The position numbers and the translations under genes are program-made. A DNA stretch of 55,098 nucleotides. Origin: Candidatus Thalassarchaeaceae archaeon (GTDB lineage Archaea; Thermoplasmatota; Poseidoniia; Poseidoniales; Thalassarchaeaceae). The notes beneath the pieces are model-generated. The model did not search any database and was not told the DNA's origin. It saw only the letters and a list, made by a program, of their open reading frames with translations. Shown in pieces: positions 3,732 through 53,470 of this stretch. Position 1 is the first letter of the stretch, and each line of letters begins with the position of its first letter. The DNA lies in the NCBI GenBank assembly GCA_030751995.1, contig JASMFB010000002.1, forward strand, positions 1-55,098, given 5' to 3'.

Positions 3732-3745
3732 TCTTCTTCACCTCC
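3727..3745 (-). promoter_or_regulatory. SD-spacer-ATGA translational coupling cassette (GGAGGTGAAGAAGAATGAT)
   Basis: On the minus strand, GGAGGTGA lies 7 nt before the permease ATG, which overlaps the ATPase TGA. The 19-mer at 30229..30247 is identical. Confidence 0.7.
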
Positions 3746-4450
3746 TTCTTCATCCAAGCCCCAAGCGGAACGGATGTCACTGGCTGCGACTGTACCGTCA
3801 CGAAGGAGGAGCATTCTGTCGGCCTGACTGGCCAAATCTGGATCGTGAGTCACCAGCAGAATGGAGATGGGGTTTTCTTCGTCATGACAAAGAGACTTGA
3901 ACAAGCGAAGCATATCTGCTCCAGAAGCGATGTCGAGATTGCCTGTGGGTTCGTCGGCGAGCAGCAATGGACGGTTGCCAGCAATCGCACGAGCGATGGC
4001 CACACGCTGTTGCTGTCCACCAGAAAGTTGGTCTGGAATATGGTCCATCCTGTCACTGAGATTAACACGAGCCAGGGCGTTTCGTGCGCGCTCTTCAGCC
4101 TCCTTTGACGGTACACCGGAGATTTCCAGTGCCATGGCGACATTGTCTAGCGCCGAGAGGTGGTCAAGTAGGTGAAAATCTTGGAAAATCCAACCGACGA
4201 GATTGCGCCGGACATCAACAACTGATGCTGGTCCCTTCAAACCATAGTTGCGTGATTTGAGCGTGATTTCACCACTTTCTGCAGGCAATAATCCCCCAAT
4301 GATGTTCAGTAGGGTAGATTTTCCGCACCCTGAAGGTCCCATCAGAGCAACAAGTTCGCCCGGTTCAATCTCCAGATTGATGCCCTTGAGAACCTCCAAG
4401 CGATTGGAGCCAGAACCGAAGCCCTTGGTGAGGTCATCAACTTTGAGCAC
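3728..4450 (-). CDS. ABC transporter ATP-binding protein (MacB/LolD-like)
   Basis: [12 protein letters not shown] (Walker A), [14 protein letters not shown] (signature), [12 protein letters not shown] (Walker B) and the H-loop VTHD. The start codon is GTG (cac at 4448..4450). Confidence 0.93.
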
Positions 4451-4504
4451 GGCCCAACCGCCCTACGGGCGGTTAAAGCAGTTATCCCTCGGATGTTAAG
4501 AGTC

Positions 4505-5620: not shown

Positions 5621-5640
5621 CAGCCCGCCCAGCCCATGCT

Positions 5641-5650
5641 GATATTAAAC
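5641..5650. promoter_or_regulatory. Candidate shared TATA element of the divergent glycosyltransferase genes
   Basis: GATATTAAAC is the only AT-rich element in the 44-bp spacer. It lies 21-30 nt from the minus-strand ATG (5620) and 15-30 nt from the plus-strand GTGs (5665 and 5671). Confidence 0.35.
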
Positions 5651-5664
5651 GGGCGAGCGAGGGC

Positions 5665-6891: not shown

Positions 6892-6893
6892 CC

Positions 6894-19918: not shown

Positions 19919-20051
19919 GAGTTTAGGAGAACAGCCAAGGCACTTCAAACCTGCTTCCGAAATCGCCTGATAACCCCATGCAAGGGACGGCGTTGCGGGC
20001 CCCATTGGAAAGCCTTGAAGGGCGGTGCATATTGTGGGAGGATTGGTGCCG

Positions 20052-36223: not shown

Positions 36224-38962
36224 TCACAGACCGATACTACGACGGCGGTTGCGCCAAATCGTTGTCAATATTGTGACGCCGAGAACGCTGATGACCGACC
36301 AAGATACGATGTTCCAAGTCTCTGAGGACAAACCGAATACACTGTCGTCGAGAATGGACCGGACGGTCATATCCACAGGTTGTGCAGCCACAGGTGCACT
36401 CTCTGGGGTGACGATGAGGGTGAATTCAAATTCATCCTCTACAGGCATCTGAACAGGGGGTTTGACTCGAACTCGAATCGTCGATGATTCCCCTGGCTGT
36501 AGCAGCAGATCGGTTTGCTCGATATCGATGGTCCAGCCCCTCAATCCTTCAGTCGATGAAATTTCAATTTGTTCTTCGATGTTGCCACTGTTGGTAATCT
36601 GTACCATGAAATCGGTGAATTCCGGATGGGTTGTATTCTGTATTGCGCCACCTTCAACCATGACATCTAGATCGTGTACAGTGGCGATTGAGACCACGAT
36701 GTCCACACAAGAAGGTGAGGCTGTGTTTCGCATCGATGCGGCACATACACGTACCACACCAGCTTCTCCGTTCATACTCTGATCCATGCCCATTACTGAG
36801 AGTGTGATATTGGCGTAATATGTTCGTGAATCGTCAGGGAGTGTGAATACACCCGGTGCCAATTCTTCTGTGTCCGCACTTAGCGATGTTGAAATCGTTG
36901 AATCCATTCCTTCGATGGTGAATAGAGCCTGTTCGACATAAGGTGATGTTCCGATATCGCTGAAGAGCATTGCAACTGTCGTCTGACCGCCGGGTGGCAT
37001 GGTGATGCTCATGGAATCAGGCGCCCCTTGTGGGTCAGCCAAAATCAATTGCATCATGTAATCATAATTTGAGACGCGCGCTGTCACGGTCTTCGTGAAT
37101 TCATTGGATGGAGAGGAAACAATGTTGACTTTCATCTGAACCTGTAGGTAATCGCCCTCATCCTCACTCTGGATGTGTATTCGCAAGTACACCTGTTGTG
37201 ACTGGCCGGCATTCAAGGAAATCTGTGTCACTTCATTGTCTGAATTATCCACATAGATGGATTGCCATGAAGGTGTAGCACAGGAACCTGGCTGATTCGG
37301 GTCACAGGCACGCAATCTGAAAGAATCCTGAACGTTCCCATTGTTGTGAACTGTCAATGGGAAGTCGATTGTCTGGTCGCTCCGTCCGGTTTGATCAGTT
37401 GAGAGGACGGATCCATCAACATCGTGGCGCTCGGCGACAGATACCTGAAGATCATCGGTAATCTCGATGGATGAATCACCACTACTAGTCACGGTGAGGG
37501 TGATGGTTACTGTGTCATCTGCGAGCGCATCTAGCGGAACGAAAACCTCCACGGACACTTGCGTCTGATGATCCTGTTGCGGCTCGTGCTTACCCAACAA
37601 GGACACCGTGGATGAACTCAATGTGACCGTCCACCCACCGGGGACGGGTGTGTGTCCGATGGCAAAGGTGTCAGGGCCATTGCCTTGATTGGTTATTGTC
37701 AACCCAGTAGATTGTGATGTTCCTGGTTCAACATTGTTGAGATAGTTGCTACTGAGGGAAGCTGAACCACCGTATGATTGGCCCACCGTCACTTGAAGAA
37801 TAGCATAACATCGCTCGTTGTTTCCATCCAAGCCACGAATTCTAATCTCGGTGGTACTGTCTGCGGGCATGCTGTCGTCAGGAGAAACGTCGAATGAGAT
37901 GGCAGCCTCTCCATTTCCGTTATCGTAAGGCAAACTTCGCTGACTGACTTCAGGAGTAACCCAGTTGGCTTTCGGGCCAGATTTTCCAAAGCCGACGGTC
38001 CAATCACTGTTGCCCGCATTGGATAGCATGAAATTGCCTGATGAAGAAGCCCCGGGTGCAATTGTCATCGAAGTGGGGGAAACCGTGGCTTCACACTCGT
38101 GAAGTTCTGGTATGTTCAGTGTAACTGAGAGATTGTCTTGTGCTGCATCTGTACCAGGGGGTGGCGCGGGTGCGGTAACGGTTGCACGGGTGATGAAGCA
38201 ATGAGAACCTGCTTCTGTCTGTTCTCCATCTGGAACCTCGACGGTGACCGTAACTGTTTCCTCATCGTCGGCATTCAATTGAACCTGAGTAGGATCTACT
38301 GTGGCCTCCAGGCCATCCGAACGACAACTGGAATCTTCATCCATCTCAATGGATATTGTCTCCTGAGTCTGCCCTGTATTCTTGACTGTGATCGACCATT
38401 CTACCTCTTCGGCACCATTGTCATAATTCTTTGTCGCTTGGCTGGATGTGAGTTCGACACCCTGAGCTGCGTTACCTGAACCCTCGCCAAGGGTGGTTGT
38501 CACGACAACATCCGCTTGAGCCGGTGCGCCCGGTGTTCCAGCCGGCGAGGCTGTTGCAGTCACTGTCGTGTCACATTCATCTGCAGTCTGTTCCCCCTCA
38601 GTCACGTTCACCGTGAGTGTCACTTGCTCGTTGGAATTGGGTGAAATGGTACCCGATACCTGCTCAATCGCACTGGTGTAACCCTGACAACCTCCGGCCT
38701 CTTGGCTGGTCGCCAATTGAACTGTGATGTCCTCATCGCCCGTGTTTCGAACGGTGATCGTATACTCTGCAGGTTCCCCTGGAGATGCCTCCTTAGAGGA
38801 TGAATCAGATGTCAGTGTGACATCGGCTTCGGCAGCAGCAAGTGGGCTTGCAAGCACGAATAACATCAGTGCGACAACCGAAAGGGTGCGTCGACGCGCG
38901 GGTGGGCGCATGAGGGGGCCACGTAGTGGCTCCCTCAAAAGGCCCCCTGCTTCTCGATTCAA
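36224..38962 (-). CDS. Surface protein with ~7 CARDB/NEW3-like beta-sandwich repeats and a C-terminal TM anchor (912 aa)
   Basis: Repeat pattern: AEYTITVRNTGDEDITV, EWSITVKNTGQTQETISI, TGLTITNQGNGPDTFAI, FPLTVHNNGNVQDSF and FMVQITNSGNIEEQIEI. The Arg-rich signal is MRPPARRRTLSVVALMLFVLASPLAAA. The TTG start at 38962 follows the SD GAGGTGA and overlaps the protease stop (TTGA). The alternative ATG is at 38911. Confidence 0.8.
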   Translation of the reverse strand: MNREAGGLLREPLRGPLMRPPARRRTLSVVALMLFVLASPLAAAEADVTLTSDSSSKEASPGEPAEYTITVRNTGDEDITVQLATSQEAGGCQGYTSAIEQVSGTISPNSNEQVTLTVNVTEGEQTADECDTTVTATASPAGTPGAPAQADVVVTTTLGEGSGNAAQGVELTSSQATKNYDNGAEEVEWSITVKNTGQTQETISIEMDEDSSCRSDGLEATVDPTQVQLNADDEETVTVTVEVPDGEQTEAGSHCFITRATVTAPAPPPGTDAAQDNLSVTLNIPELHECEATVSPTSMTIAPGASSSGNFMLSNAGNSDWTVGFGKSGPKANWVTPEVSQRSLPYDNGNGEAAISFDVSPDDSMPADSTTEIRIRGLDGNNERCYAILQVTVGQSYGGSASLSSNYLNNVEPGTSQSTGLTITNQGNGPDTFAIGHTPVPGGWTVTLSSSTVSLLGKHEPQQDHQTQVSVEVFVPLDALADDTVTITLTVTSSGDSSIEITDDLQVSVAERHDVDGSVLSTDQTGRSDQTIDFPLTVHNNGNVQDSFRLRACDPNQPGSCATPSWQSIYVDNSDNEVTQISLNAGQSQQVYLRIHIQSEDEGDYLQVQMKVNIVSSPSNEFTKTVTARVSNYDYMMQLILADPQGAPDSMSITMPPGGQTTVAMLFSDIGTSPYVEQALFTIEGMDSTISTSLSADTEELAPGVFTLPDDSRTYYANITLSVMGMDQSMNGEAGVVRVCAASMRNTASPSCVDIVVSIATVHDLDVMVEGGAIQNTTHPEFTDFMVQITNSGNIEEQIEISSTEGLRGWTIDIEQTDLLLQPGESSTIRVRVKPPVQMPVEDEFEFTLIVTPESAPVAAQPVDMTVRSILDDSVFGLSSETWNIVSWSVISVLGVTILTTIWRNRRRSIGL

Positions 38963-41900
38963 GAATTCACCTCTTCAACGAAGGTACCGACATCTGCTTG
39001 GCAATTACGACATACAACAAGGGCGGCTGCGCTGCACGCAAATCCTGATTGATGATATCGAGCGCCGCAACCGGGACATGCTCGACGGACGCCAGAAATT
39101 GGTTTGTTACAACCCCAACACACAACTTCTGGCGTTGTTTTCTGACTCTGAGGAGGGGGGGTCGCACCGGAGAATGCAGCAGGAGGGGGTGGGGCCAAGG
39201 TTGGAGAGGCCTGATTCCCCTTCAACCGAACGATGAGCATACCGGCAACGACAAGTCCGACCACGATGAATATTAGCAAGAAGACAACTGTCATGGTTGT
39301 CCCACTTCCACCCTCTGTTCCCAGAGATGGATCATTGGCGACATCCAATATTGCGGAATGTGTGGAACCGTGCATATTGGAGTTTTCAAAACTGAGTGAA
39401 ATAAGATTCTCGCCGGGTGAATCGGGCACGATACGGACACGAAGACCCTGTGATTCACCGATGGCCAAATCCACAATATCTGAATCTTCGACTTCAGCGG
39501 TCCATCCTTCGGGGGCCTCGATGATGACACGTTCCTGAACGACGGTGTTACCTACATTCAATATTTCAAAATGCAACAGGGAGGATTGGTCGGCCATTGA
39601 TTCTTCGATTGAAAGAGTCGTCCAGATGACATTGGGTTCTGCCGCGACTGGAATCAGGGCTCCTGCGGAACGCTCGATACCATCAGCATTGATGGTCAAG
39701 CCGATTTCTGGTTGCCAGCCTGCCATGGCAAAGTTGGGTGCAGTGATGATGCAATTGGCTTCTGACGAGCCACCAGCAGCAATCTCTGACACCGGATCAC
39801 AAATCCCTTCCCAAGTGGAATCGGGCAAATCGATACTCAGAACGGGTGTCCAAGCTGAACTCCCATCGTTGATAATCAGCCAGTGGCCTACGAAACCAGG
39901 TGTACCGGTGGGAATTTCTGACAATGCTGCACCCTGTGAATCAGAAATTCCAGTGAATGTCAGAACGGGTTTGGCTTCCTCGACGACATCCAATTGACCT
40001 TCCCACGTAATTCGATAACCGCCCTGTGTTGTCAGATGAAGTGTTAACGAACCCCCCACTGCTAAGCCATTTCCTTCAAGGCCGAGCATATAGGATGCGG
40101 ATTCACCAATCGGGATTGTGATTGAATTTAAGCCAGCGATTACCGACCAACCTCCGGGCCTTGCGTCGACGTTGGGATAGAGTGTCAATTCCGTGTTGCC
40201 TAGATTCGTAATTGTGTATTGAAGGTAAACGGTTGAATCTGGGCGAAGAACGCTTGGAGTGGATTCTGCTTCGATGATTGCGGAATCGAACTCAATGACC
40301 TCCATCTGAATCGAATAGGACCACGATTGAGTGGGGTCAATTTGGGAAGTAACGCGCAGGATTGCCTCCATGTTCTGACCTGCGGGCGGAGGAGTGCCAA
40401 GTTGCGGTGTCACAGTCATTTCGACGGTGCGAGCGCCGTTTAGCGGAATTGCTCCCGTTGAACCAGAAGCGGTGCCTATTGAAGAACCAAGATTGTCTAG
40501 CCCCACCCACCATCCAATGGGCGATTCGATGAACAGATTGTAGCCCTGTGCACCATTACCCTCATTGAGGACATCGACCTCAAACATTGTCGTAGTAGAT
40601 GGATGAACTTGCAAGACCGAGAATGGCGCTTGGAAAGAAATCTCAGGCAAGAGGGGGACATCGAGAGTTAGAGTCAGGGGGAAATCGATGTTGTTGTCAT
40701 CATCGGTCGCTGTGATTGTCAATTGATACAATCCAGGGGCAGGGGATTCATCGTGCACCATCGTGAAACCAAGCGACGATGATTGTGAACCGTTGAGTGC
40801 GAAACTCGTCTGAGTGAAAGATGTGAACCACGCGGTCATCATCTGTCCATTATTGATTCTCATTGGTGTTGATGCACTGATTGATGCATTGGTAGATATG
40901 AGTGCAGTGTTGCGAATTTCCAATTGCCATGAGGTGCTAGTCTGGCTAGCTTCTTCAATCTCTAGGACAGTCTCTGATGTGGAAACACGTACACCGGGAG
41001 CACTGACAGCAACTGGGATTTCGAAGAGATTGTTGTCTTCGTCAATCTCCTCTTCAAGATGGTCGGGATCAATGACGATGGTAATCGCCTGTGTGCCCTC
41101 GTTGATGGGTGTCCAATCCCAAGTTGCCCAGCGAATCATTCCGGGCCCGATATCGATGGTAACTTCACCAAGATTCTGGGTGCCAGCAATAGCTTCGATG
41201 CGAAGACCGTCCGCACTACCGCCACCCTGATTTTCAATCTGAATTGAAATCTGGCAGACTTCGTTCACCTGAGGAATAGAAGTTGACAATTGGAAGGACG
41301 TTGGGATAGGAAGTGGGTCGCTCCTCAAATCATTGACCCCGGCCCCTCGGACTGCGAGAGCGAATGGTTGATCGCTACGCTGTCCACCGTGTGCGACATC
41401 GGTGATTTGAACTGTCCAAACTCCCGAATCTGCTTGATCGATAAGGACGACTTCGACGTTGTTCAAATCATCGGCATCTCCACCTGTAGTCGAACGACCA
41501 TTGGCGAAATCATTGCCCTTGTATATCGTCCCATCAGGCGCAGTGATGACCATATCGAGATTGTTTTGCAATTGTGTGGACGACCATGTGCTGCCTGGAT
41601 AATCAGACCACGTCAGAACGGCTTTGAATGGCGTATTTCCACGACTGAGATTGAATTGGTATTCTCGAGTTTGTCCGCTACGAACCGTGTTGCGATCATC
41701 GACCCAAACACCAGTATCTGTTCCGGGCATGAGGGAATTCGCGAGATTTACCCTGCCCCAGCCCTCATTCATGTTGGGTATATCTCGAGAACCGGTGTCC
41801 TCTGCACCAAGAATGAGCATTCCCTTGATGAGGGCGCCCTGTGGTGAGGGGCGACCTGCCACTTCCATCAGATATTCACGAATGAGAACAGAGGCACCTG

Positions 41901-43479
41901 CTGCATTGGGGGCAGCCATTGAAGTGCCACTGTATTCCAAATACCACTGGCTGGACCAAGTTGCGCCACTCGTATCTGTAGCATCTTGACTGAGGCAAGA
42001 GCGGACCCAAGAGCCTGGTGCGGTGACATCGGGTTTGATGCGACCATCATCGGTAGGCCCCCGACTACTGCCATCAGAGAGAGTGCTTGGAGCGCCACCA
42101 CCGCGATTGTGATGATTGCCCACGGCAACGGCGTTCTTGGCAGTTGCAGGTGGTGTAATCGTATCTGAATCAGGGCCGTCATTGCCAGCAGAAATCAGTA
42201 CGAGCATTCCATTGTAGGACCAAAACTGATCATACTGGTTTGTTCGACTGTCGGTATCCTCACTGCTGGTGGTATATTCACCATAGTAGCCATCCATTCC
42301 CCATGAGTTTGTGTGGATGTAGGAATTGCCTTCGTAGGCCTTTCTGATGAGGGTGTCCATACTGACGCCGCCGAAATTACCGCTGTCATCATCCTCCATT
42401 GCTTGGAATCGTAGACTGGCTTGTGGAGCCACACCTGCATATCCACCCCTGCTGCCGTTGCCCAGAACAGTACAAGCGACATGCGTGCCATGCCCTGAAT
42501 GTTCATCCTCGGTTGAGGAATCACCCCAAATGACAGACTCAACGTGTTGAATGCGACCATCAAAGTCACCGTGATCTCGATCGATCCCTGAATCAGCGAC
42601 AGTGACCGTGTGGCCACTACCATTCAATCCAACGACGAAGTAATTCGAGACATCGTCAGCCCTCATATGACCCACTGCAACGTTATTGTCGATGCTGAAG
42701 ATTGGTTCAAGGCTGAGCCAAGATAGGGCGGGTTCAGCAGCCACCGTGGCAATATCCTCCAGTGAAAGCAGGCCATGATGCCGGCCAGTGTCAATCGGAC
42801 GATATGATGTCAGGTAAGTGGCTGCTGTTTGGTCCAAATCACCCATTAGACCGGGCAATCGAACATGGTCCTGTGGAGTGGAATAATCCGCCAATCTCCA
42901 ACCCGAGAGTTGAACTGCGGTTGAGGGAGGAGCGTCCAGTGGGAGACTAGAGGCTTCAGAGAGAAGGTCACTGACGTGGTGGTCGACCATGAAGGCCAAC
43001 GGAAGTGGGTGAACGGCAGCCACGACGGGTAGTTCGGCAGCTGCAGCGATGGCTTGAGGGTGGCCCTGAATCAGGAAGCCCGATGGAGGAATATGGGCAC
43101 GAATTTCAATGCCTGGTAATTCGGTCAACGCCACACGACCTGGCCATAGACCCACATCTCCATCGATGAGGACCAGAGCGATATCTGTTCGAATTGTGGT
43201 CAAAATCTCGGGAACCTCGGCATCAGATTGCAAACCGTCGATGGTAAACATCCCGATATGGGTGTCAGCGGTGGTTTCCCGAATTTGCTCTTCGCCATCC
43301 CAACTCGCAGAAGGATGTGCGCTTCCAATGCTGTCGGGATCCGGGTGGAGTTCGATTCGTTCAATGCCCGATGCCCCCTCTTCTTCAACTTCGGGAATTG
43401 ATGAAGAAGGGGTCGAAAATGGGGATACTACCGACAGTAATAGGATGCCGAGAATACAGAATACAATTCGATGCCGCAT
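38959..43479 (-). CDS. Subtilisin-like serine protease (peptidase S8) with a long repeat stalk, a TM helix and a cytoplasmic zinc ribbon (~1506 aa)
   Basis: Catalytic motifs in track numbering are VADSGID (D324), HGTHVA (H358), SAGNDG (N461) and GTSMAAP (S548). A P/PPC-like domain is LTWSDYPGS...NNLDMVITAPDG...NNVEVV. Six or more CARDB-like repeats are followed by the TM helix VVFLLIFIVVGLVVAGMLIV and the ribbon CWGCx9CPGC. The ATG at 43479 gives the signal MRHRIVFCILGILLLSVV. Confidence 0.9.
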   Translation of the reverse strand: MRHRIVFCILGILLLSVVSPFSTPSSSIPEVEEEGASGIERIELHPDPDSIGSAHPSASWDGEEQIRETTADTHIGMFTIDGLQSDAEVPEILTTIRTDIALVLIDGDVGLWPGRVALTELPGIEIRAHIPPSGFLIQGHPQAIAAAAELPVVAAVHPLPLAFMVDHHVSDLLSEASSLPLDAPPSTAVQLSGWRLADYSTPQDHVRLPGLMGDLDQTAATYLTSYRPIDTGRHHGLLSLEDIATVAAEPALSWLSLEPIFSIDNNVAVGHMRADDVSNYFVVGLNGSGHTVTVADSGIDRDHGDFDGRIQHVESVIWGDSSTEDEHSGHGTHVACTVLGNGSRGGYAGVAPQASLRFQAMEDDDSGNFGGVSMDTLIRKAYEGNSYIHTNSWGMDGYYGEYTTSSEDTDSRTNQYDQFWSYNGMLVLISAGNDGPDSDTITPPATAKNAVAVGNHHNRGGGAPSTLSDGSSRGPTDDGRIKPDVTAPGSWVRSCLSQDATDTSGATWSSQWYLEYSGTSMAAPNAAGASVLIREYLMEVAGRPSPQGALIKGMLILGAEDTGSRDIPNMNEGWGRVNLANSLMPGTDTGVWVDDRNTVRSGQTREYQFNLSRGNTPFKAVLTWSDYPGSTWSSTQLQNNLDMVITAPDGTIYKGNDFANGRSTTGGDADDLNNVEVVLIDQADSGVWTVQITDVAHGGQRSDQPFALAVRGAGVNDLRSDPLPIPTSFQLSTSIPQVNEVCQISIQIENQGGGSADGLRIEAIAGTQNLGEVTIDIGPGMIRWATWDWTPINEGTQAITIVIDPDHLEEEIDEDNNLFEIPVAVSAPGVRVSTSETVLEIEEASQTSTSWQLEIRNTALISTNASISASTPMRINNGQMMTAWFTSFTQTSFALNGSQSSSLGFTMVHDESPAPGLYQLTITATDDDNNIDFPLTLTLDVPLLPEISFQAPFSVLQVHPSTTTMFEVDVLNEGNGAQGYNLFIESPIGWWVGLDNLGSSIGTASGSTGAIPLNGARTVEMTVTPQLGTPPPAGQNMEAILRVTSQIDPTQSWSYSIQMEVIEFDSAIIEAESTPSVLRPDSTVYLQYTITNLGNTELTLYPNVDARPGGWSVIAGLNSITIPIGESASYMLGLEGNGLAVGGSLTLHLTTQGGYRITWEGQLDVVEEAKPVLTFTGISDSQGAALSEIPTGTPGFVGHWLIINDGSSAWTPVLSIDLPDSTWEGICDPVSEIAAGGSSEANCIITAPNFAMAGWQPEIGLTINADGIERSAGALIPVAAEPNVIWTTLSIEESMADQSSLLHFEILNVGNTVVQERVIIEAPEGWTAEVEDSDIVDLAIGESQGLRVRIVPDSPGENLISLSFENSNMHGSTHSAILDVANDPSLGTEGGSGTTMTVVFLLIFIVVGLVVAGMLIVRLKGNQASPTLAPPPPAAFSGATPPPQSQKTTPEVVCWGCNKPISGVRRACPGCGARYHQSGFACSAAALVVCRNCQADVGTFVEEVNS

Positions 43480-43553
43480 ACGACTCCCCAATGGTGGGGG
43501 TTGCCGAGACCACTTTCTATCTTCCCTACTCTTGACGACACCTATGGTGTCGT

Positions 43554-44228
43554 TCACAGCCAACTTCGCTCTGCATCGAGGGTATGACTCTCGAAGGTAT
43601 ATTCGCCAACTTCAATGATCCAAGATTGCTTGGAAACGGCGCCATCATAGTTGTCGTAATCAAGTGTGACCTCAATGTTGTAGAGTTCCCAAATTGATTC
43701 GCCGGTAATCATCAATTCAAGGGTGTCGCCAGCAATCGATGTGTGTGCTAAGAGAGAACCCACCTCAAAATGAGTGGAATTCAGAATTTCGCCATCCTGA
43801 TTGGAGAAGGAAGCATCGATTTCGACGTTTGCGATAGGGCGGCTACCATAGTTGTGGAGTTCTATGAGAACGACGTGGCCGGGACCGCCCTGTTTGTAGA
43901 CCACATCTACCTCGACAGCATCTCGAGGAACTACCCAGAAGCCGAGTGCGAAAATACTGAACATCAAGGCAGCCATGAATACTGAAGCGAGGACAACGCG
44001 TGTCGGCGTTACAATGCCGACAACTTCACGCGCCCGGATGTAGGCCTGCTCGGCAATTTCTCGTTGTTCCTCCGACGGTTCAAAGTCGTCCTTGAACACC
44101 TTTTTCTTCATCCGTTTGATTCGATCTGTCAGACTAATCTTAGAATCGTCCGCCGCTTCAAGTTCGGGATTGTCGGGGTCACCAACCAGCGTGTACATTC
44201 CCTCAATCTCTTCGTCCTTCTTCGCCAT
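43554..44228 (-). CDS. Type II membrane protein with an external beta-rich domain (224 aa)
   Basis: MAKKDEE... acidic/basic cytoplasmic N-terminus, the TM helix VLASVFMAALMFSIFALGFWVV and a ~130-aa external domain. The SD GGGGTGAT overlaps the stop of the upstream 1468-aa gene, with a 4-nt spacer. Confidence 0.65.
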   Translation of the reverse strand: MAKKDEEIEGMYTLVGDPDNPELEAADDSKISLTDRIKRMKKKVFKDDFEPSEEQREIAEQAYIRAREVVGIVTPTRVVLASVFMAALMFSIFALGFWVVPRDAVEVDVVYKQGGPGHVVLIELHNYGSRPIANVEIDASFSNQDGEILNSTHFEVGSLLAHTSIAGDTLELMITGESIWELYNIEVTLDYDNYDGAVSKQSWIIEVGEYTFESHTLDAERSWL

Positions 44229-44232
44229 GAAA

Positions 44233-47200
44233 TCACCCCGCCAATGTGGCCACTCCCGTGGCAATGGCCGTGGTCAGCGGCTCAGGCAATAGATAGTGAG
44301 TGGTTTGGGCATTCGTTCCCATCAAATTGAGTAGAGAAAGGTCAGAAGCCAAACCGTTGACGCCGATTGTAGTACCTGTTGGAACGCCACCAGTGACCTG
44401 TGCATCAATCAATACGGCTCGACCGTCAAATGAGAATTTTCCGATGTCTACGGATGCTCGGGCGTTAGCGATGATTCGGCCACCACGAACGTCCTCAATC
44501 GTGACAATGGGATACGCACTACCCAGATAACTCAGATGAATCGTTGCACTCTTGAGATTCTCGCCCGCAGCTTCCAGTTGTTCAAGCCAAACACCGGGCT
44601 GAGTAGGAACGTCGTTTTGACGGAGATAGAGTCGTTCAATACCGTTGCCACTGCTCATAACCCTCAGACCGAATTCTTCGGTCGGCTCGAGGCTCATGTG
44701 GCTGGCAAGGTTCTGTGCTAGCAGTAAACTATCGCCACGAGCCTCAACAGCCCGGCCGGTGGTAGAAATGAACAAATCCATTCCTGGTCCCGAAGATGAG
44801 AATATCAGGGTCGACATTCCTTGGAAACTTACTGGCTTAGTGATGTCGAAAACGGTGGAAGGTGCGGTTGTCAGATTCATCTGTCGAGGGAGTTCATGCA
44901 AGAATACCGTTGCAGGCCACCATTTCCCTGCATTGAATCGGTTCATCTGTAGCATCAGTGAATCAATCGAAAGGCCTGTTTGCCCAGGATCTTCAGCCTC
45001 CATTCCAACAGAGAGCGTTGACCCCAAAGATGCGGTCATGTCCAATTGTTCAGGGATGCCTTGCAGCAGCAATTCGTATCGAGTGGATTCAGTCCGATCC
45101 AGCAATGTCACGTGGATTGCATCTAATGATCGACTCATCTCATAATTACTGAAAATAGATAATTGTGGGACAACTGGACGATAATCGGTGGTAATCTGTG
45201 ATTCAATCTTCAAATCAGTGGATTGGCCCGGTTCAAATCCGATTAGCATGAGATGTAGGTCGCGACCGTTGTAATTGTTGACCTCGACCATGAATTCTGG
45301 ATTCGCAGGTACCCACCCCTCCAATTCGATATCGATATCCCAACGATCAGTAACAGTGAGGTTCTGATAATTGATTGAAAGATCAATGGATGGTGCGAGA
45401 TTGGGCAACCAGACACGCGCTCTGAAGGCGGTGTGATTATCCTCAGCGAGGTCCGCCTCCATCGAAATACCGTGCAACCATTCTGGCTCATCGAGTGCCA
45501 TTCGACCTTGTTGCGCATCGATAACTAGATCGAAACTCTGATCTGCATCCAGTTCGACACCGAATGAGAAGTCGGAGCGTTGATCATCGATTGCACCACC
45601 TGTTACGCTGGTTACCAATTCTCCAAGCATCCCATTCACACTCTGTCCAAAATCAGTGAATCCAGCAAGGAAGAATGCGATACCTGCAAGGCCTTCGTCG
45701 GTGGTGAATTGTGGTACATCCAGAGCGCTGGCCTCACCCACACCACCCTGTGGAACCTCGATTGCCAGATTTGAGGGCAGGGGGTCGAGGAGGACGTGCG
45801 CGGTCAATCCGTCAGCCGGGGATTCGTGAGTCGTCTGATCCATAATCACCGCGTGGAAGGGCGAATCACCCGGCCCAACAAGGAATCCAGTTCCACGACC
45901 AGCCTCACCAGGAACTCCAGGCATCTCCGCACCGAGGAAGCCAACTTCCGTGATTCCATGCACACGAGCAGAGAGTGTGGCCTCCCCTGCATCTTGGTCT
46001 TGCATGAAGAGGAAATGGTCGCCATCCATTGTTTTGGGATCGGTGGCGTTGGAAATCATCAACGAAAGAGAGCCAATTGGGGTTTGAGATATCCAAGAGA
46101 CGTCATCACCGATGGCCATCGTGAAATTGCCAGGCAACATGTCGATGTCCAAGACCTGTCTCTGCTGCCCTTCACGACCAGCATAAACGACCTCGACAAT
46201 GTCTCGGTCCGAGGTGAAGGTGAGTTCGGATTCTGTGACATCGATTTCAAGAGAAGCTGGATGGTTAGAGAGATAGACGTATTGGAAATCGCTGTCAGGG
46301 AGATCTATGTTTCCAAATTCATCGTCATGATGTTCAAGGAAGAGGACTCGTAATGGATCGCCGCCGACCGCACCCATCGAAATTTGCTGCGATTGTGTCG
46401 AGGCATCATCGATGATGTGGAGTGAGTGAAGGCCTTCATGGTGCAAACTCATGGCGATTGGAGCCAGTTTGTCGACCTCTCCATGGCGACCCTGGATAAT
46501 CGTCGTACTCTTGTCATCTGCCAACAGTAAATGTGGACCAAAAGCAATCGGAATATCGGTTGAGCCCATCACCAATTGAAGAAGGCCAATGGGCATGGGT
46601 TGACGGCCCACTTCGAAATGGGTGAGCAACTCCAGATGTATTGCAGTACCTTGTGTGGCACTGCCTGTGCTGCCACTGATTACATCGACCAGCGCATTCG
46701 GAATGCTGTTGATTATGTTTGAAATGTCGATGAAGAGATCGACAACGGCGAGAATCGTTACATCAAGAATCTTGGAGAAAACATCGAGACTGTCGTCTAA
46801 TGTTCCTACTTCTTGTTCATCGCTTCCGCCGAGCCAAAAATCTCCGTAGAGAAGGAGGCCTTTTGGTAGATTTTCTGCATTCATCCGTGTCATCCGATGA
46901 TCTGTTTCGGCACCCTCGCGTTGGAACCAAGAAACATATTCCAACGATGTGACTGATTGTGTTGAACGCAACATAACTAGGGTATTGGGTGGATTTTGAG
47001 GGTCGATTGGGAGCGTTGGGTCATTGACGTTCGGCGTTGAATCACGAGTGAAATTCTTGATGCCGAGAATCAACGATAAACGGCTCGGAATTTGCCCTGG
47101 AAGTTCAGGCTGAGAAGCGCTGCCCAACATCTGGAAACAGCGTTCAATCTCCAGCGGCGTCATCGTTCCAGAAGGCATGCCACGCAACCAAACCAAGGTT

Positions 47201-48639
47201 TCACTGACATTCCCGTAGGGTTCAGATGAACTCTCCCTGAATGCACTTTTATTCTCATGGAAATGCAGCCACAAATCAGCGCGCTCATCGGCATAATATT
47301 CGATTGAGGTAAGGCCATCTTCACCGATTGTACCCGAACCCGTCGGAAGGACGTTGTCCGTTCGAATTGTCAAATCGACAATCGATGGCAATAGGTATGA
47401 CGTTGAATTGGGGTGGACTCCGACTTCAAGATAGGATAACTCCCATAGTTCCCTGTTATTGCTGCTGTCTGCTGGTGCGAAATGTCCGTAACCAAACCCA
47501 ACACCAACCCGACAATCGTGGGTCCAAGAGGCGTTGAGATGATGCGCATTGGGTTGGTAATGTGGTGGACACTGGGTTTGTCCGTCATTGTCGATTTGTA
47601 TGGAAATAGGTGCAGAGAGTGCAGCAATAGTGACTCCTGTGTCCGTTGAGTTACCGGGTGTACCTGATGAAAATCCTGAGGCTAGCAAAGCCAATGCAGC
47701 CAATAGTTCAGATCCTGCTGATGTTAAATCAAACCAGAATCGCTCAAATCCAACTTGGAGGGCCCAATCGGTAGGTGGTATGGTGAAGTGAGAATCAATC
47801 AACCAAACGTATGATTCGCCCGATGAAGTTGGATTGATTCCATAAGCGAAGGGTTTCATCAAAGAGACTTCCAAGGTTTCCATCACACTCCAGATTTGAG
47901 CGGATGGATTGATGACCTCAACTCGATATTCAATCGTTGGTTCCAACCATAATTGAGTCGGGACTGGGGAGCCCATGACACCCCACCCGACTCCAGGGGA
48001 TGCATCGAAACCGATTGTCAAACCGACACGGATGTCGGGATTTTCGACGGTGGCTGTATTCGGATCATCGTCACCATCGATATCGATTTCATGCATCAAT
48101 GGATCTTGGCTAAACAGACTCAGTAGAGACGCTGAGAATGGGACAACAGTGAATTTCTCGTGATTGGGGCCATTATTCTGGGCTTGATATTCAGACCAGA
48201 TGATGTAGTCGGTGAGATTGACCAATGTCCCCCAAATCGTGTCAACTAGACCGGGTGGAGCATCATCACCTAGCAAGATGTCAATTGGTTTAGGATGATC
48301 AACTCCGATTGGATCAGAGGGTTCAATGGCCAAGCCATCTAGGGCTGTATCGATGTGTGTTAACGGGTCCTGAGAACCGATAGAACGAACTCCATTACGA
48401 ACCGGCGAAAGAGAATTCTCTGCCTGTAATTCAATCTGGTCACTATCGAGCATTAAGTCACGTGTTGCCAAAACATCGTGTAATTCAGATACAATCCCGA
48501 AATCTTCAGCCCGAACCTGGGCAGCCTCAACGGCCATGAAGGGACTCAACATTGGAAGGATGAGGACAAGGACGAGTGCCACACTAGTTCTATCTCGAGC
48601 GCTGGGCGCTGCCAGAATGAGACGTGTACTATCCTCCAT
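44233..48639 (-). CDS. Giant secreted protein of unknown function (1468 aa)
   Basis: An uninterrupted ORF with the N-terminal signal/anchor RTSVALVLVLILPMLSPFMAVEAAQ. I recognise no domain motif. The ATG at 48639 is preferred; the GTG is at 48651. Confidence 0.75.
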   Translation of the reverse strand: MEDSTRLILAAPSARDRTSVALVLVLILPMLSPFMAVEAAQVRAEDFGIVSELHDVLATRDLMLDSDQIELQAENSLSPVRNGVRSIGSQDPLTHIDTALDGLAIEPSDPIGVDHPKPIDILLGDDAPPGLVDTIWGTLVNLTDYIIWSEYQAQNNGPNHEKFTVVPFSASLLSLFSQDPLMHEIDIDGDDDPNTATVENPDIRVGLTIGFDASPGVGWGVMGSPVPTQLWLEPTIEYRVEVINPSAQIWSVMETLEVSLMKPFAYGINPTSSGESYVWLIDSHFTIPPTDWALQVGFERFWFDLTSAGSELLAALALLASGFSSGTPGNSTDTGVTIAALSAPISIQIDNDGQTQCPPHYQPNAHHLNASWTHDCRVGVGFGYGHFAPADSSNNRELWELSYLEVGVHPNSTSYLLPSIVDLTIRTDNVLPTGSGTIGEDGLTSIEYYADERADLWLHFHENKSAFRESSSEPYGNVSETLVWLRGMPSGTMTPLEIERCFQMLGSASQPELPGQIPSRLSLILGIKNFTRDSTPNVNDPTLPIDPQNPPNTLVMLRSTQSVTSLEYVSWFQREGAETDHRMTRMNAENLPKGLLLYGDFWLGGSDEQEVGTLDDSLDVFSKILDVTILAVVDLFIDISNIINSIPNALVDVISGSTGSATQGTAIHLELLTHFEVGRQPMPIGLLQLVMGSTDIPIAFGPHLLLADDKSTTIIQGRHGEVDKLAPIAMSLHHEGLHSLHIIDDASTQSQQISMGAVGGDPLRVLFLEHHDDEFGNIDLPDSDFQYVYLSNHPASLEIDVTESELTFTSDRDIVEVVYAGREGQQRQVLDIDMLPGNFTMAIGDDVSWISQTPIGSLSLMISNATDPKTMDGDHFLFMQDQDAGEATLSARVHGITEVGFLGAEMPGVPGEAGRGTGFLVGPGDSPFHAVIMDQTTHESPADGLTAHVLLDPLPSNLAIEVPQGGVGEASALDVPQFTTDEGLAGIAFFLAGFTDFGQSVNGMLGELVTSVTGGAIDDQRSDFSFGVELDADQSFDLVIDAQQGRMALDEPEWLHGISMEADLAEDNHTAFRARVWLPNLAPSIDLSINYQNLTVTDRWDIDIELEGWVPANPEFMVEVNNYNGRDLHLMLIGFEPGQSTDLKIESQITTDYRPVVPQLSIFSNYEMSRSLDAIHVTLLDRTESTRYELLLQGIPEQLDMTASLGSTLSVGMEAEDPGQTGLSIDSLMLQMNRFNAGKWWPATVFLHELPRQMNLTTAPSTVFDITKPVSFQGMSTLIFSSSGPGMDLFISTTGRAVEARGDSLLLAQNLASHMSLEPTEEFGLRVMSSGNGIERLYLRQNDVPTQPGVWLEQLEAAGENLKSATIHLSYLGSAYPIVTIEDVRGGRIIANARASVDIGKFSFDGRAVLIDAQVTGGVPTGTTIGVNGLASDLSLLNLMGTNAQTTHYLLPEPLTTAIATGVATLAG

Positions 48640-48669
48640 GTTGGTATACACTGCCGCCCGCTCCGCCTA

Positions 48670-48686
48670 AAGGGTCTCCGACCCTT
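48670..48686 (-). terminator. Stem-loop AAGGGTC-TCC-GACCCTT between the PKD protein gene and the giant ORF
   Basis: A perfect 7-bp stem in the 80-nt intercistronic spacer. Confidence 0.35.
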
Positions 48687-48719
48687 GTGCGCGAGGGACT
48701 GGCATTCACAATGGTGCTC

Positions 48720-51131
48720 TCAACGCCGTATGGTGCTTCGATTTCCACACTTTGGACAATCGATTTGCGCTTGCTCAATTCCAAGGGGCATATCGACGGC
48801 GTAGTGTTGGCCGCATTCTCCGCAGCTGCCAACGACCTCTGAGGTCTGTGGGTCTGCAGGAGCGGTTTCGGGGGCCGTTGGTACTGGCTCAGGTTCAGGG
48901 GCAGCGACTGGAGCGGATTGTTGGCTCGGTTGATTCAACGCATCTGGAAGTTGTATTCCACCGGAAATTACTCTGGAACGTTCAGTTGGAACGCTCACGG
49001 GTTTGGGATCCGGCTTGGGCTCAGGTTCGGGTTGTGCAACAGGAGTCGCATCAGGTTCTTCGAAGGCTGAAAGTAAATCGCTGTCATCAATGACTCCAGA
49101 TTGAATTGGAATTGGCGCTTGTTGAGCACCGTATCCGGAACCCACACCGGCAATTTGCGCCATCTCATCGCCACCTCCGCTGCGTTGGAATCCTCTCGAT
49201 GCACCTCCACCTCGATTCTGGAACATCGCCAATTGCTCCTCTCGTTCGGGTTGGTGGGCAGCTTCGGCTTCTTCAGCGGCGGTTCGGGCGGCTTCTTCAG
49301 CCATCAATTCTTGATGTGTACGCCTCTGATTCATCCATCGGAACGAGAAAATTCCACCTGCAATCACTGCAAGCACCAACAAAATGGCACCACCTGCAAA
49401 CACCATCGTCATCGCCGATGCTCCAGAAGAAGGTTGGGCCTCTACGTGGACATTCAATTCACGGGTAGATGACAAGCCCTGTTCATTGGTGACTGTGCAG
49501 GTAATGGAGTAGTCTCCGCTCTTAGTAAACTTCCAAGAGACCAAATCACCTGTCGCCTGAGCATCATTCTTTGTATCTCCATCTTCATCGATATCGACGT
49601 TGCGATCGAAATCCCAACTCCACGTGAGGCCGGGTGAATTCGGGTCGGTGGCATTGAGGCGCCATGTGTTCTCTTCTCCAGCCACCACATCTGTTGGTCC
49701 CGTGATGGGGTCCAGCACCGGCGAGGTTCGATCCTGGATTACGACAACGATAGAAAGGGAATCTGTCAAATTCGCGGAATCGTAAACACGCAATTCGACA
49801 CTGTGGTTTCCAACAGAAGAGAAACTGTAGGTGAACGAATTTCCAGAGCCCATATCTGATTGGACGAGCAGGCCATCGGCATACCATTCCTCACGATCGA
49901 TTCCAAAATTGTCCAATGAAGAGCTGGTGACTGTGAAGGATTCGTCAAATCCGCGAACCAGATTATTGCCACCATTGATGATTGGCGTGGGTAGAGTTGC
50001 GTCATCAACATCGATGGAGATTGATGATGTGTCAATACGACCATCGACTCCATTGATGCGGAGATTGACGTCGAAAGTGCCTTCAGCGGGCCAAGAAACT
50101 TCGGCCCACGATTGTGTCAACTCAAATATTCCATCATCGTCCAAATCCCATTCATAGGCAGCAGTATCCACTTGATTGGAGAGATTGGGCGTGCTATTTG
50201 CGGAAATCGTCACCGCCTCACCAACATCCACGGTTGCTGAGGCATCACTGGTGATGGTCGCATCCAGAATCGGCATCAGGGTTACGATGACTGTGAAACT
50301 CGCTTCGGTTGAACCATCGCCTCCGCCGGCCGGTCCAGCCTCATTGTCTGCGTACAGATAGAGAGGCTGATTTGCATAGGTCGAATCGACCGTCCAGACG
50401 ACGCTGTCTTCGGTTGTGACCTGTAGAAGGTCGGCCCCTGTAATTCGGAACTCTGGGGGATTTCCATCAAGGTAACTGAGGCGCTGATTATCGGTGAGAA
50501 GGAAGAGATCTGGGTCGCCAGACATCGGAATCGCACTAATTGAAATCTGCGTGCCTTCATCGAGAATTAGAGAATTCTCATCCACCAATTTCGTGTGACT
50601 GTTAGTGTCCAGATTGACAAGGGCGTCGTGAATGGTCCAATGACTCTGAGTTGGGAATGAAATATCGAGGCTGGCCTGTAGCATACTACCACCCTGTGCC
50701 CCTTGGTCATCGTCACCAAGATGATCGAGATTGTCTAGAACAACGTACCAATTCTTCGCGCTCTCATCGGTGGGTACCGTCCAATGCCAACGAGCTGAAC
50801 CCACCATGTCCTCGAACACCGTTTCCTCAGCCCAATATGTTGGTGAGCGATAGGATTGGTCGTTTGCATAGACTTGCAGTGCAGCGTTTCTAAAGACAAG
50901 GAAGTCAAAATTAACATCGCCTGTCACATCGAATTCAACGATGGTTCCGGGGGCCAAAGTTCCCAATGCAATCTGCTCACAACTCTGGTCCGAAATCATG
51001 ATTGGATCTGGCATTGAACCCATGTCGGTCGTGCCACAAACCGTGGAACGTCCTTCACCAGCAGCACTCAAAGAAAGAGTAGACATCACAAGAAGAGTGA
51101 CGAGGATGAGCACCACACGTGCGTGTCGCAT
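48720..51131 (-). CDS. Surface protein (~803 aa): signal peptide, two beta-sandwich modules, three PKD-like domains, a TM helix and a cytoplasmic tail ending in a zinc ribbon
   Basis: The signal is MRHARVVLILVTLLVMSTLSLSAAG. PKD-like segments are AAYEWDLDDDGIFE and LTWSWDFDRNVDIDEDGD...GDYSITCTVTNEQGLSS. The TM helix is MVFAGGAILLVLAVIAGGIFSF. The C-terminal ribbon is CGECx19CPKC. Confidence 0.8.
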   Translation of the reverse strand: MRHARVVLILVTLLVMSTLSLSAAGEGRSTVCGTTDMGSMPDPIMISDQSCEQIALGTLAPGTIVEFDVTGDVNFDFLVFRNAALQVYANDQSYRSPTYWAEETVFEDMVGSARWHWTVPTDESAKNWYVVLDNLDHLGDDDQGAQGGSMLQASLDISFPTQSHWTIHDALVNLDTNSHTKLVDENSLILDEGTQISISAIPMSGDPDLFLLTDNQRLSYLDGNPPEFRITGADLLQVTTEDSVVWTVDSTYANQPLYLYADNEAGPAGGGDGSTEASFTVIVTLMPILDATITSDASATVDVGEAVTISANSTPNLSNQVDTAAYEWDLDDDGIFELTQSWAEVSWPAEGTFDVNLRINGVDGRIDTSSISIDVDDATLPTPIINGGNNLVRGFDESFTVTSSSLDNFGIDREEWYADGLLVQSDMGSGNSFTYSFSSVGNHSVELRVYDSANLTDSLSIVVVIQDRTSPVLDPITGPTDVVAGEENTWRLNATDPNSPGLTWSWDFDRNVDIDEDGDTKNDAQATGDLVSWKFTKSGDYSITCTVTNEQGLSSTRELNVHVEAQPSSGASAMTMVFAGGAILLVLAVIAGGIFSFRWMNQRRTHQELMAEEAARTAAEEAEAAHQPEREEQLAMFQNRGGGASRGFQRSGGGDEMAQIAGVGSGYGAQQAPIPIQSGVIDDSDLLSAFEEPDATPVAQPEPEPKPDPKPVSVPTERSRVISGGIQLPDALNQPSQQSAPVAAPEPEPVPTAPETAPADPQTSEVVGSCGECGQHYAVDMPLGIEQAQIDCPKCGNRSTIRR

Positions 51132-51181
51132 AATTAACTCGCCCGATTCTTTCACGTTTGAAGGTCGCCCATGACAGTGTA

Positions 51182-53360: not shown

Positions 53361-53470
53361 TGGTCCGAGCGGCCGGATTTGAACCAGCGATTCCCTGATG
53401 GCTGCCTTGTCTACAACCGTGGATTTCACGTCTACAGTCAGGTGCATTGGCCAGGCTATGCTACGCTCGG
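53361..53470 (-). tRNA. tRNA-Tyr (anticodon GUA) with a 32-nt intron at 37/38 and an encoded CCA
   Basis: Hand fold of the minus strand: acceptor CCGAGCG/CGCUCGG, D stem GCAU/AUGC, anticodon stem CCUGA/UCAGG, loop CUGUAG|A, T arm GCUGG-UUCAAAU-CCGGC, discriminator A plus CCA. Exons are 53470..53432 and 53399..53361, and the intron is 53431..53400. A bulge-helix-bulge core is visible: the 4-bp helix CUGU/GCAG flanked by the 3-nt bulges AGA and CCA. Confidence 0.85.

Follow-up and report, generated by a model that had tools for sequence, protein, structure and literature searches.

A probable envelope gene cluster, conserved order-wide in Marine Group II archaea and built on a two-protein family

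The sla genes of Sulfolobales, which encode the S-layer proteins SlaA and SlaB, are adjacent to each other. In Staphylothermus marinus, tetrabrachion carries a bound subtilase, STABLE, and pyrolysin-type subtilases are likewise part of the envelope of archaea. SlaA is a secreted, β-rich protein of 120–180 kDa and SlaB is a membrane-anchored β-sandwich protein, and both evolve fast (PMC6911244). All Marine Group II (MGII) metagenome-assembled genomes (MAGs) encode extracellular S8 peptidases (PMC6864105), and of the reads that were assigned to MG-II peptidases, more go to S08A than to any other family (PMC5069720); the five-gene cluster considered here is described in neither paper. This cluster lies on a 55,098-nucleotide (nt) stretch of contig JASMFB010000002.1 (assembly GCA_030751995.1, Candidatus Thalassarchaeaceae archaeon), hereafter the window, in which the coordinates below are positions. 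The source is a Marine Group II archaeon of the MGIIb family of Poseidoniales.

Five co-directional long open reading frames (ORFs) on the minus strand, at 36224..51131, make up the cluster and 27% of the window. Their products are a PKD-domain protein, a 1468-aa protein that we call the orphan, a 224-aa type II membrane protein that we call its partner, an S8 subtilase, and a protein of immunoglobulin (Ig)-like repeats. Signal peptides or transmembrane helices, together with isoelectric points (pI) of 4.0–4.4, mark all five as surface or membrane proteins. The block lies between RNase Z (rnz) and rpl15e at one end and nuoA-D at the opposite end. A sequence-only reading of this stretch had already described the five minus-strand genes, their flanks, and their share of the window, all correctly. 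The sequence likewise shows the spacing that it gave for the longest-ORF starts (80, 4, and 74 nt, then the TTGA start/stop overlap), and its domain calls are upheld by Pfam matches (PKD; Peptidase_S8 with CARDB and NEW3; FixG_C/NEW3-type Ig), with no matches for the orphan or the 224-aa protein.

What is known in this cluster is the S8 protease family and the PKD and Ig-type surface proteins. What is new is an order-wide envelope cluster, built on a two-protein family and including an orphan fold without a match, in abundant uncultured archaea. Marine Group II organisms are among the most abundant archaea of the surface ocean and none is in culture, and no description of their cell envelope was found in the literature. 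A cluster of five surface proteins in every genome examined is an obvious place to seek their coat, virus receptors, and protein-feeding apparatus, and the orphan and its partner offer concrete targets for metaproteomics, antibodies, cryo-electron tomography correlated with fluorescence in situ hybridization, and structural work.

The orphan protein and its membrane partner

To place the five proteins and their neighbors, 167 loci covering both families of the order, MGIIa and MGIIb, were fetched and searched by tblastn. Full-length orphan homologs are found at all Poseidoniales loci. They are 67–95% identical to the window's orphan in MGIIb (Thalassarchaeaceae) MAGs and 30–35% identical in Poseidonia/Poseidoniaceae (MGIIa), including the 2012 MG-II reference genome (CM001443.1). 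Alignment-based scans of one genome per species returned 323 and 387 stretches that encode an orphan relative.

Order-wide, the passage from the orphan gene to the 224-aa gene is the only tight junction of the block. For 126 of 155 loci, the spacer to the first ATG falls between −1 and 11 nt, the commonest value being 4 nt (63 loci). The arrangement GGGTGA-N4-ATG is kept in the window's clade and is a good complement to the 3′ end of archaeal 16S rRNA. We accept from this arrangement that translation of the two genes is coupled.

The partner consists of an acidic/basic cytoplasmic N terminus of ~75 aa, a transmembrane helix at residues 76–101, and a β-rich ectodomain of ~120 aa that carries the conserved motifs VPRD..VY.Q.G.GH, HN.GSR, and AHSS.AGD.LE. 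It has no Pfam or NCBIfam match; a weak resemblance to an FxLYD domain (E 0.005) falls under the cut-off.

The two genes also travel together outside Poseidoniales, in other uncultured archaea. Searched exhaustively with a profile, 1.84 billion representative proteins yielded 270 members of the orphan family, and the deep branches are full-length proteins of 1200–1840 aa without Pfam domains that end in the same C-terminal motif as the orphan. Eight remote loci, representing seven distinct members (L169 is the NCBI copy of L168), comprise seven with separate genes and one fusion (L176). At each of the seven separate-gene loci, a small gene follows the orphan homolog at −4 to +37 nt. Five of these genes encode complete type II membrane proteins of 148–203 aa, a sixth is the L169 copy, and that of L177 is cut at the contig end. 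When the five complete proteins are compared with the 224-aa family as profiles, they match over 121 columns (hhalign 99%, E 8e-18). No S8, PKD, or Ig gene is adjacent to the pair in any of the seven separate-gene contexts; in L171, a PKD-domain solute-binding protein is encoded ~7.6 kb upstream on the other strand. A scan of genomes for the remote clade gave one MAG, from Lake Tanganyika and labeled only Methanobacteriota, and a protein search for the clade returned mostly close relatives.

In the fusion protein, P0279, the C-terminal motif of the orphan is lengthened to a full transmembrane helix and is followed by a basic loop, a second transmembrane helix, and the partner ectodomain. This topology is coherent only if the orphan tail lies in the membrane and the partner N terminus in the cytoplasm. 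At the fusion locus (1035..5852 and 6631..7905 of L176), a serpin gene is located 0.8 kb away on the other strand.

Judged by sequence comparison, the evolutionary unit is therefore the orphan with its 224-aa partner, a pair that is the core of the cluster and a new archaeal protein family. Because the tight junction is conserved, the two proteins co-occur in remote lineages, and one fusion protein joins them, we infer that they pair physically; they almost certainly form a membrane-anchored complex.

The orphan itself, with a pI of 4.3, begins with a signal peptide, has two helices in its N-terminal part, and contains three cysteines, of which two are invariant. An alternative start at GTG 48651 was dropped, being not conserved among relatives. 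N-glycosylation sequons at N477 and N529 are found in 138 of 138 aligned sequences, and the C terminus is conserved as H-x-L-x-P-E-P followed by ~14 hydrophobic residues and a terminal Gly. An archaeosortase-type sorting signal (PGF-CTERM or PEF-CTERM) was considered for this end and rejected: the protein finishes ...HYLLPEPLTTAIATGVATLAG, 14 residues after PEP, with no basic cluster and no NCBIfam hit. Pfam, NCBIfam, PADLOC, and PHROG gave no hit to the orphan, and its sequence profile has no match in the PDB.

Structure prediction, a check that the sequence-only reading had suggested, was carried out with AlphaFold2 on two overlapping halves of the orphan, using alignments of 25 and 20 sequences. 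Both halves model well, with predicted local distance difference test (pLDDT) scores of 73 and 79 and a predicted TM-score (pTM) of 0.74 in each case. The model is almost all β, with strand runs of 10–14 residues and short turns building long up-and-down meanders; two conserved hydrophobic helices occur at about residues 620–655 and 985–1012. Foldseek searches of both halves against the PDB and of the C-terminal half against BFVD gave noise only (TM-score ≤0.13). As modeled, the orphan is a confidently predicted fold with no relative among PDB structures. The top hits were outer-membrane β-barrels (usher, TonB receptors, LptD, and BamA) at TM-scores of 0.07–0.13, root-mean-square deviations >25 Å, and probabilities ≤0.3; these were dismissed as artifacts of the 3Di strings of β meanders. 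Internal duplication was also rejected, as the halves are dissimilar and hhalign finds only a 20-residue overlap. No homology to archaeal S-layer proteins, such as SlaA/SlaB, halobacterial csg, or the Nitrosopumilus SLP, was found by Pfam, NCBIfam, the PDB profile search, or Foldseek against the PDB, where the only listed S-layer entry was 7zgx at a TM-score of 0.11.

The MGIIa orphans P0055, P0095, P0099, and P0133 carry an insert of ~100 aa that is absent from MGIIb (about residues 1060–1150 of P0055). The insert contains repeated (I/A)LEDG(R/K)(I/V)xxxE loops that resemble the calcium-binding loops of EF-hand and dockerin domains.

Gene order, spacers, and the neighboring genes

The five-gene cluster is a core feature of the order. 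The order PKD, orphan, 224-aa protein, S8, Ig on one strand has 0 violations in 167 loci from MGIIa and MGIIb, so that the possibility, allowed for in the sequence-only reading, of an order not kept in relatives is not borne out. All five genes are present in 116 of the 167 loci, and in 96 of these 116 both flanks are present too. The divergent lineage L172 has four genes between PKD and the rest, two of which are on the opposite strand, and the orphan, partner, S8, and Ig genes are still together. Several MGIIa loci (L117, L118, L129, L131, L147, L150, and L153) have about 0.8–1.6 kb extra between the Ig-repeat gene and nuoA, a stretch with room for an additional gene absent from MGIIb.

Conserved order is weak evidence of a functional link here because rpl15e and nuoA-D are equally fixed at the same loci. 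It could accordingly be argued that, outside the orphan/partner pair, the surface genes are functionally unconnected and are adjacent because the rpl15e–nuo region of these streamlined genomes seldom rearranges. That rpl15e and nuoA-D keep their place without a plausible functional link speaks for this explanation, as do the promoter-like box that each gene seems to have for itself (see below) and the presence of similar surface proteins elsewhere in the window (17228..21836). On the other hand, the upstream flank does rearrange: rnz is absent in 22 of the 113 loci with enough upstream sequence, and an ftsZ-like gene flips. The five genes, moreover, are never reordered or lost in the 167 loci even though their proteins are 25–45% identical between MGIIa and MGIIb, compared with 67–83% for rpl15e and nuoB, and four of them remain together even in L172. 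We regard mere synteny as the strongest of the alternatives, although on balance an unlikely one.

Within the block, the sequence-only reading had named a second coupled junction besides that of the pair, namely the TTGA overlap of the S8 and Ig genes. Its first junction stands, with an SD-like (Shine–Dalgarno-like) motif at the stop and conservation across the order; the second does not. The −4 overlap that results from starting the Ig gene at TTG 38962 is seen at just 9 of the 130 loci, every one of which belongs to the clade of the window, and in other clades 44–73 nt separate the S8 stop from the first ATG. The 17-codon extension holds a conserved box, CCTTTTGAGGG, whose TTTTGA begins 29 nt before ATG 38911, and that ATG opens a typical signal peptide, MRPPARRRTLSVVALMLFVLASPLAAA. 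Because the overlap is clade-limited, the extension contains a conserved box, and the signal peptide at ATG 38911 is canonical, the TTG start was rejected. The Ig-repeat gene most likely starts at ATG 38911, after a 47-nt spacer, and encodes 895 aa; the TTGA overlap is a longest-ORF artifact limited to the window's clade.

The longer spacers contain conserved elements (Table 1). Four of the five ATGs are preceded by A/T-rich boxes at a fixed distance, the exception being that of the 224-aa gene. The PKD box has the order-wide consensus TTgAAGtGg at −31..−21 with an A+T peak (57 unique rnz/PKD spacers). In the orphan spacer, TTTAGG of the box CCCTTTAGG, at 48666..48674, begins 32 nt upstream of the orphan ATG. 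The hairpin before it shows compensatory variants in relatives, such as CTGT-AGA-ACAG in L010 and L029, and the 46-nt stretch that includes it (48655..48700) folds at −24 kcal/mol with a z score of −3.0. We take this element as a putative terminator, promoter, or both.

Two hairpins and a box lie between the 224-aa and S8 genes. The hairpin directly after the 224-aa gene has an invariant stem and a variable loop in the window's clade, and ACGACACC-nnn-GGTGTCGT recurs at the same position in L052, L056, L060, L069, L072, L073, and L085. In another MGIIb clade this position is occupied by a hairpin of different sequence, CACGACC-nnn-GGTCGTG. The 27-nt stretch around it in the window (43531..43557) folds at −12.4 kcal/mol with a z score of −4.75, and 0 of 200 shuffles were equally stable. 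This hairpin could be an RNA 3′-end or terminator element, or a protein-binding palindrome upstream of the candidate promoter box of the S8 gene. A box equivalent to the TATA-like box of the window (GATAAAG, GATATAG, or TATCAAA) is found in the S8 spacer of every Poseidoniales clade. The arms of the S8-leader hairpin covary between subclades (CCCCA/TGGGG versus GGCCCCCTC/GAGGGGGCC), which pair in registers one column apart; in the window alone this hairpin is weak (−11.3 kcal/mol, z score −1.5). For the Ig gene, the order-wide consensus is AGcCtTTtGAggGg at −34..−21, and of the 77 unique spacers, which come from both families, 34 have TTT[AT] (TTTTGA in the window) beginning at −29.

Most genes of the window that follow a spacer likewise have an A/T-rich box ~34–22 nt upstream of the ATG, and G-rich sequence frequently comes after it. 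Upstream of rpl15e, for instance, the sequence reads CATATAGGGGG, and for the gene at 12333 it reads GGTTTTGAGCC. These boxes fit the TATA boxes of leaderless or short-leader archaeal mRNAs and suggest that transcripts in this organism are mostly leaderless. The spacer motifs were searched for in the supplements of a Red Sea transcription start site study and none was found, and an Rfam search returned nothing relevant to the block.

The conserved boxes at fixed distance and the hairpins in the spacers suggest four transcription units: PKD, orphan with 224-aa partner, S8, and Ig. We favor this arrangement over the single 15-kb operon of the sequence-only reading, as only one junction is tight, the long spacers hold boxes and hairpins, and the genes are not adjacent wherever they are present, L172 splitting off the PKD gene and the remote lineages keeping orphan and partner only. 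Its complex of fixed stoichiometry survives for the orphan/partner pair, on the strength of the tight junction, the remote co-occurrence, and the fusion, but not for all five proteins, since only the pair travels outside Poseidoniales.

Table 1. Genes of the cluster and elements of its junctions and spacers, in window coordinates
Feature	Position	Strand	Description
PKD-domain surface protein	48720..51131	-	803 aa; ORF and start
Orphan	44233..48639	-	1468 aa; without family match
Small type II membrane protein	43554..44228	-	224 aa
S8 subtilase	38959..43479	-	1506 aa
Ig-repeat surface protein	36224..38911	-	895 aa from ATG 38911; longest ORF from TTG 38962, 912 aa
A/T-rich box TTCAAACGTGAAAG	51149..51162	-	31–18 nt upstream of PKD ATG; candidate promoter element
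Orphan-gene spacer element	48666..48692	-	Hairpin AAGGGTC-GGA-GACCCTT leading into box CCCTTTAGG
Tight junction GGGG-TGA-TTTC-ATG	44226..44239	-	SD-like GGGGTGA over last codon and stop of the orphan; spacer 4 nt
Hairpin ACGACACC-ATA-GGTGTCGT	43535..43553	-	Perfect 8-bp stem directly 3′ of the 224-aa gene stop
TATA-like box AAGATAGAAAG	43513..43523	-	44–34 nt upstream of S8 ATG; invariant in the window's clade
G+C-rich hairpin	43484..43500	-	Just before the S8 start; 3′ arm (GGGGAG or GAGGGGG) is an SD-like motif
Box CCTTTTGAGGG	38932..38942	-	Within the 17-codon longest-ORF extension; candidate Ig-gene promoter

The three neighbors of the pair are of recognizable type. The PKD protein has a signal peptide, an ectodomain of ~570 aa with two PKD domains, a transmembrane helix at 571–599, and a low-complexity cytoplasmic tail of ~200 aa with a terminal CxxC...CxxC zinc ribbon. 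PF18911 (PKD_4) matches it with 59 bits (cut-off 27; 4e-16) and PF00801 with 46.7 bits (cut-off 23.5), each in two stretches, and the two CxxC motifs of the tail (CxxC..CPxC; window 48720..48830) are present at 141 of 145 loci. The Ig-repeat protein has a signal peptide, repeated Ig-like domains, and a C-terminal transmembrane helix followed by RNRRR. It matches the NCBIfam choice-of-anchor T family (NF041740) with 100.2 bits (cut-off 70) in four stretches, and Pfam finds FixG_C, NEW3, and HYDIN/VesB-like Ig domains; a search against PDB sequences gave no match. PADLOC returned no hits, and the one PHROG match was of the Ig protein to a family of unknown function (E 0.002).

In the S8 protein, a signal peptide and an N-terminal region of ~260 aa precede a KP-43-type catalytic domain with its β-barrel (about 265–709). 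CARDB and further Ig-like domains follow, then a transmembrane helix at 1391–1420 and a cytoplasmic Cys-rich tail. Pfam assigns Peptidase_S8 (PF00082) with 147 bits (cut-off 21.8; 7e-43), CARDB (1e-13), and NEW3, and residues 265–709 align end to end with PDB entries 1wmd and 5fax (chain residues 1–431; E 1e-74). The catalytic triad and oxyanion Asn lie in the motifs VADSGID, HGTHVA, NSWG, and SGTSMAAP, and a regular expression search found DSG, HGTH, NSWG, and GTSMA all together in 121 of 135 full-length loci. To judge from the alignment and these motifs, the protein is a regular S8 member of KP-43 type with an unusual extension, and its catalytic site is intact. The tail, CWxC..CPxCGARYH..C..CxxC (window 38959..39150), is conserved at 116 of 134 loci. 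It is unusual for an extracellular protease to have a conserved cytoplasmic zinc ribbon, and the ribbon hints that the two sides of the membrane are coupled; we are aware of no role reported for such a ribbon in subtilases. The zinc ribbons of the PKD protein and the protease suggest an intracellular partner.

Related proteins and other envelope functions are encoded elsewhere in the window. A 984-aa protein with CARDB and DUF11 domains (17228..20182, minus strand) has a transmembrane helix and a cytoplasmic double zinc ribbon, and thus the same plan of ectodomain, transmembrane helix, and zinc ribbon as the PKD protein and the S8 protease. Divergent to it is the gene for a 603-aa Ig-like/CARDB surface protein (20025..21836, plus strand). 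The region 537..8150 is envelope-related in content, with a MacB-like pair (a 1064-aa FtsX-type permease and an ABC ATPase), a 418-aa protein that contains EF-hand pairs, and two GT4 glycosyltransferases whose genes diverge. Rfam places a 107-nt tRNA (53364..53470, minus strand; 50 bits) in the interval from rpl15e to the ftsZ-like gene; ARAGORN did not report it, and it is probably an intron-containing archaeal tRNA.

Readings of the cluster

We propose that this is a cell-envelope gene cluster around an anchored orphan/partner complex, placed beside a membrane-anchored feeding protease, rather than one operon for five subunits, and we hold this reading with even confidence. The orphan would be secreted, glycosylated at the conserved sites, and held at the membrane via its short hydrophobic C terminus. 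The 224-aa protein would be made from the same transcript by coupled translation and would insert with its N terminus in the cytoplasm. On pairing, its transmembrane helix would lie against the C-terminal tail of the orphan and its β-sandwich ectodomain against the membrane-proximal part. The pair would then be an anchored heteromeric surface complex and a structural part of the coat, a canopy with its anchor like SlaA and SlaB. Around it, the three Poseidoniales neighbor genes would each be served by their own promoter-like elements. Both the PKD and the Ig-repeat protein would be single-pass and extracellular, and the subtilase, on its long CARDB/Ig stalk, would digest external protein at the cell surface. 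We infer the feeding role for this particular protease; it would fit the heterotrophy of these archaea, which is based on peptides. The zinc ribbons of the PKD protein and the protease would provide cytoplasmic contact.

A bolder form of this proposal is that in Poseidoniales, as well as in uncultured archaea related to them, the pair makes up the main surface coat (S-layer), with a fold that has no relatives among solved structures and membrane anchoring by two helices, and that the zinc-ribbon-tailed protease and the PKD protein are embedded in it and linked to the cytoplasm. We offer this tentatively and think it less probable than not. The coat role is the weakest step of the mechanism and a doubtful one, the predicted fold being unlike that of known S-layer proteins.

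Several points weigh against the reading that we favor. Many His, Asp, Glu, Trp, and Pro residues of the orphan are invariant, as are two Cys, a constraint that exceeds that of many S-layer proteins and could reflect a binding or catalytic role. The combination of β meanders with hydrophobic helices does not resemble the Ig-like arrays of solved archaeal S-layer proteins, and Foldseek recovered no S-layer structure for the orphan. The 224-aa protein and a remote partner show no significant similarity when aligned pairwise by BLAST (E 0.26), so that their homology rests on the profile comparison, and the fusion is a single protein on one metagenomic contig. The promoters are read from conserved boxes, and these T-rich boxes could be, or also be, terminator elements. 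The protease, PKD, and Ig genes may be co-linear with the pair only because synteny in this region is high in general. Finally, no paper on a Poseidoniales S-layer or on this cluster was found in the literature.

The invariant residues raise the alternative that the pair is not structural at all and serves, for example, as a scaffold that binds substrates or particles and passes them to the protease, as a β-sheet protein that handles lipid or polymer, or in cell–cell or virus interaction. The many invariant polar and aromatic residues and the conserved Cys pair would be at home in such a device, as would the two conserved hydrophobic helices in an otherwise β protein and the EF-hand/dockerin-like DG(R/K)I..E loops of the MGIIa insert; the nominal Foldseek neighbors, all at noise level, are large antiparallel sheets or barrels that handle ligands. 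Against this, neither sequence nor fold comparison linked the orphan to a family of enzymes, transporters, adhesins, or fusion proteins, and in the remote lineages the pair is on its own, without a protease or transporter gene next to it. We consider a nonstructural pair improbable.

Least probable of all is a single five-gene operon whose products, in fixed stoichiometry, form a surface proteolytic or adhesive machine around the S8 protease: the common strand, the short spacers, the order unbroken in 167 loci across both families, the surface exposure of all products, and the zinc ribbon shared by protease and PKD protein would suit it, but a single junction is tight, the TTGA overlap is limited to one clade and probably no start, promoter-like boxes and hairpins are conserved in every long spacer, the PKD gene of L172 is set apart by four genes (two of them on the opposite strand), remote lineages retain the pair only, and the housekeeping flanks are equally syntenic.

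Comparison with known systems

The anchored orphan/partner complex and its neighboring protease can be set beside four described systems. The window's protease shares with Bacillus KP-43 and SubHal (PDB 1wmd and 5fax) the catalytic domain and C-terminal β-barrel, the Asp/His/Ser triad, and the oxyanion Asn. Those enzymes are secreted proteins of ~430 aa, whereas the window's protease adds ~680 aa of CARDB/Ig-like domains, a transmembrane helix, and a Cys-rich cytoplasmic tail. As a giant, multidomain, surface-anchored S8 protease, it also resembles the cell-envelope proteinases of Gram-positive bacteria (PrtP and ScpC/CEP; PDB 5xya and 6vjb), which supply peptides or cleave host proteins. The match to these is weak and local (residues 469–560). 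They belong to another subtilase subgroup, differ in domain order, have an LPXTG/sortase anchor in place of the transmembrane helix, and lack an orphan/partner pair.

Tetrabrachion with STABLE provides a precedent for a coat-associated protease, as in both it and the present cluster an archaeon has a subtilisin-family protease of very large size at its cell surface, on or beside the established or candidate surface-layer protein. Tetrabrachion binds its subtilase, whereas the link between protease and orphan here is one of gene neighborhood. The window's protease, unlike STABLE, has its own transmembrane anchor and a cytoplasmic zinc ribbon, and the orphan, unlike tetrabrachion, has no long coiled-coil stalk, its longest predicted helices being of 28–36 residues.

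The sequence-only reading knew of no characterized equivalent of the cluster. This holds insofar as no characterized homologous system turned up; functional analogs do exist, in the tetrabrachion with its subtilase and in SlaA/SlaB. SlaA and SlaB constitute an S-layer, whereas the orphan/partner pair is a candidate for one, and no sequence or fold similarity between the two systems was detected. The partner differs from SlaB in being a type II protein with a single small ectodomain and no coiled coil, and the orphan differs from SlaA in having its own short hydrophobic C terminus. Membership in the SlaA/SlaB family, or in that of tetrabrachion, is thus not supported. The likeness is one of design. 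In both systems a large, secreted, β-rich protein (the orphan is ~158 kDa) is encoded with a smaller, membrane-anchored one of β-sandwich type (the partner is ~25 kDa), and the large protein is fast-evolving and glycosylated, or in the case of the orphan predicted to be glycosylated from its conserved sequons. By working principle, SlaA/SlaB is the closest known system.

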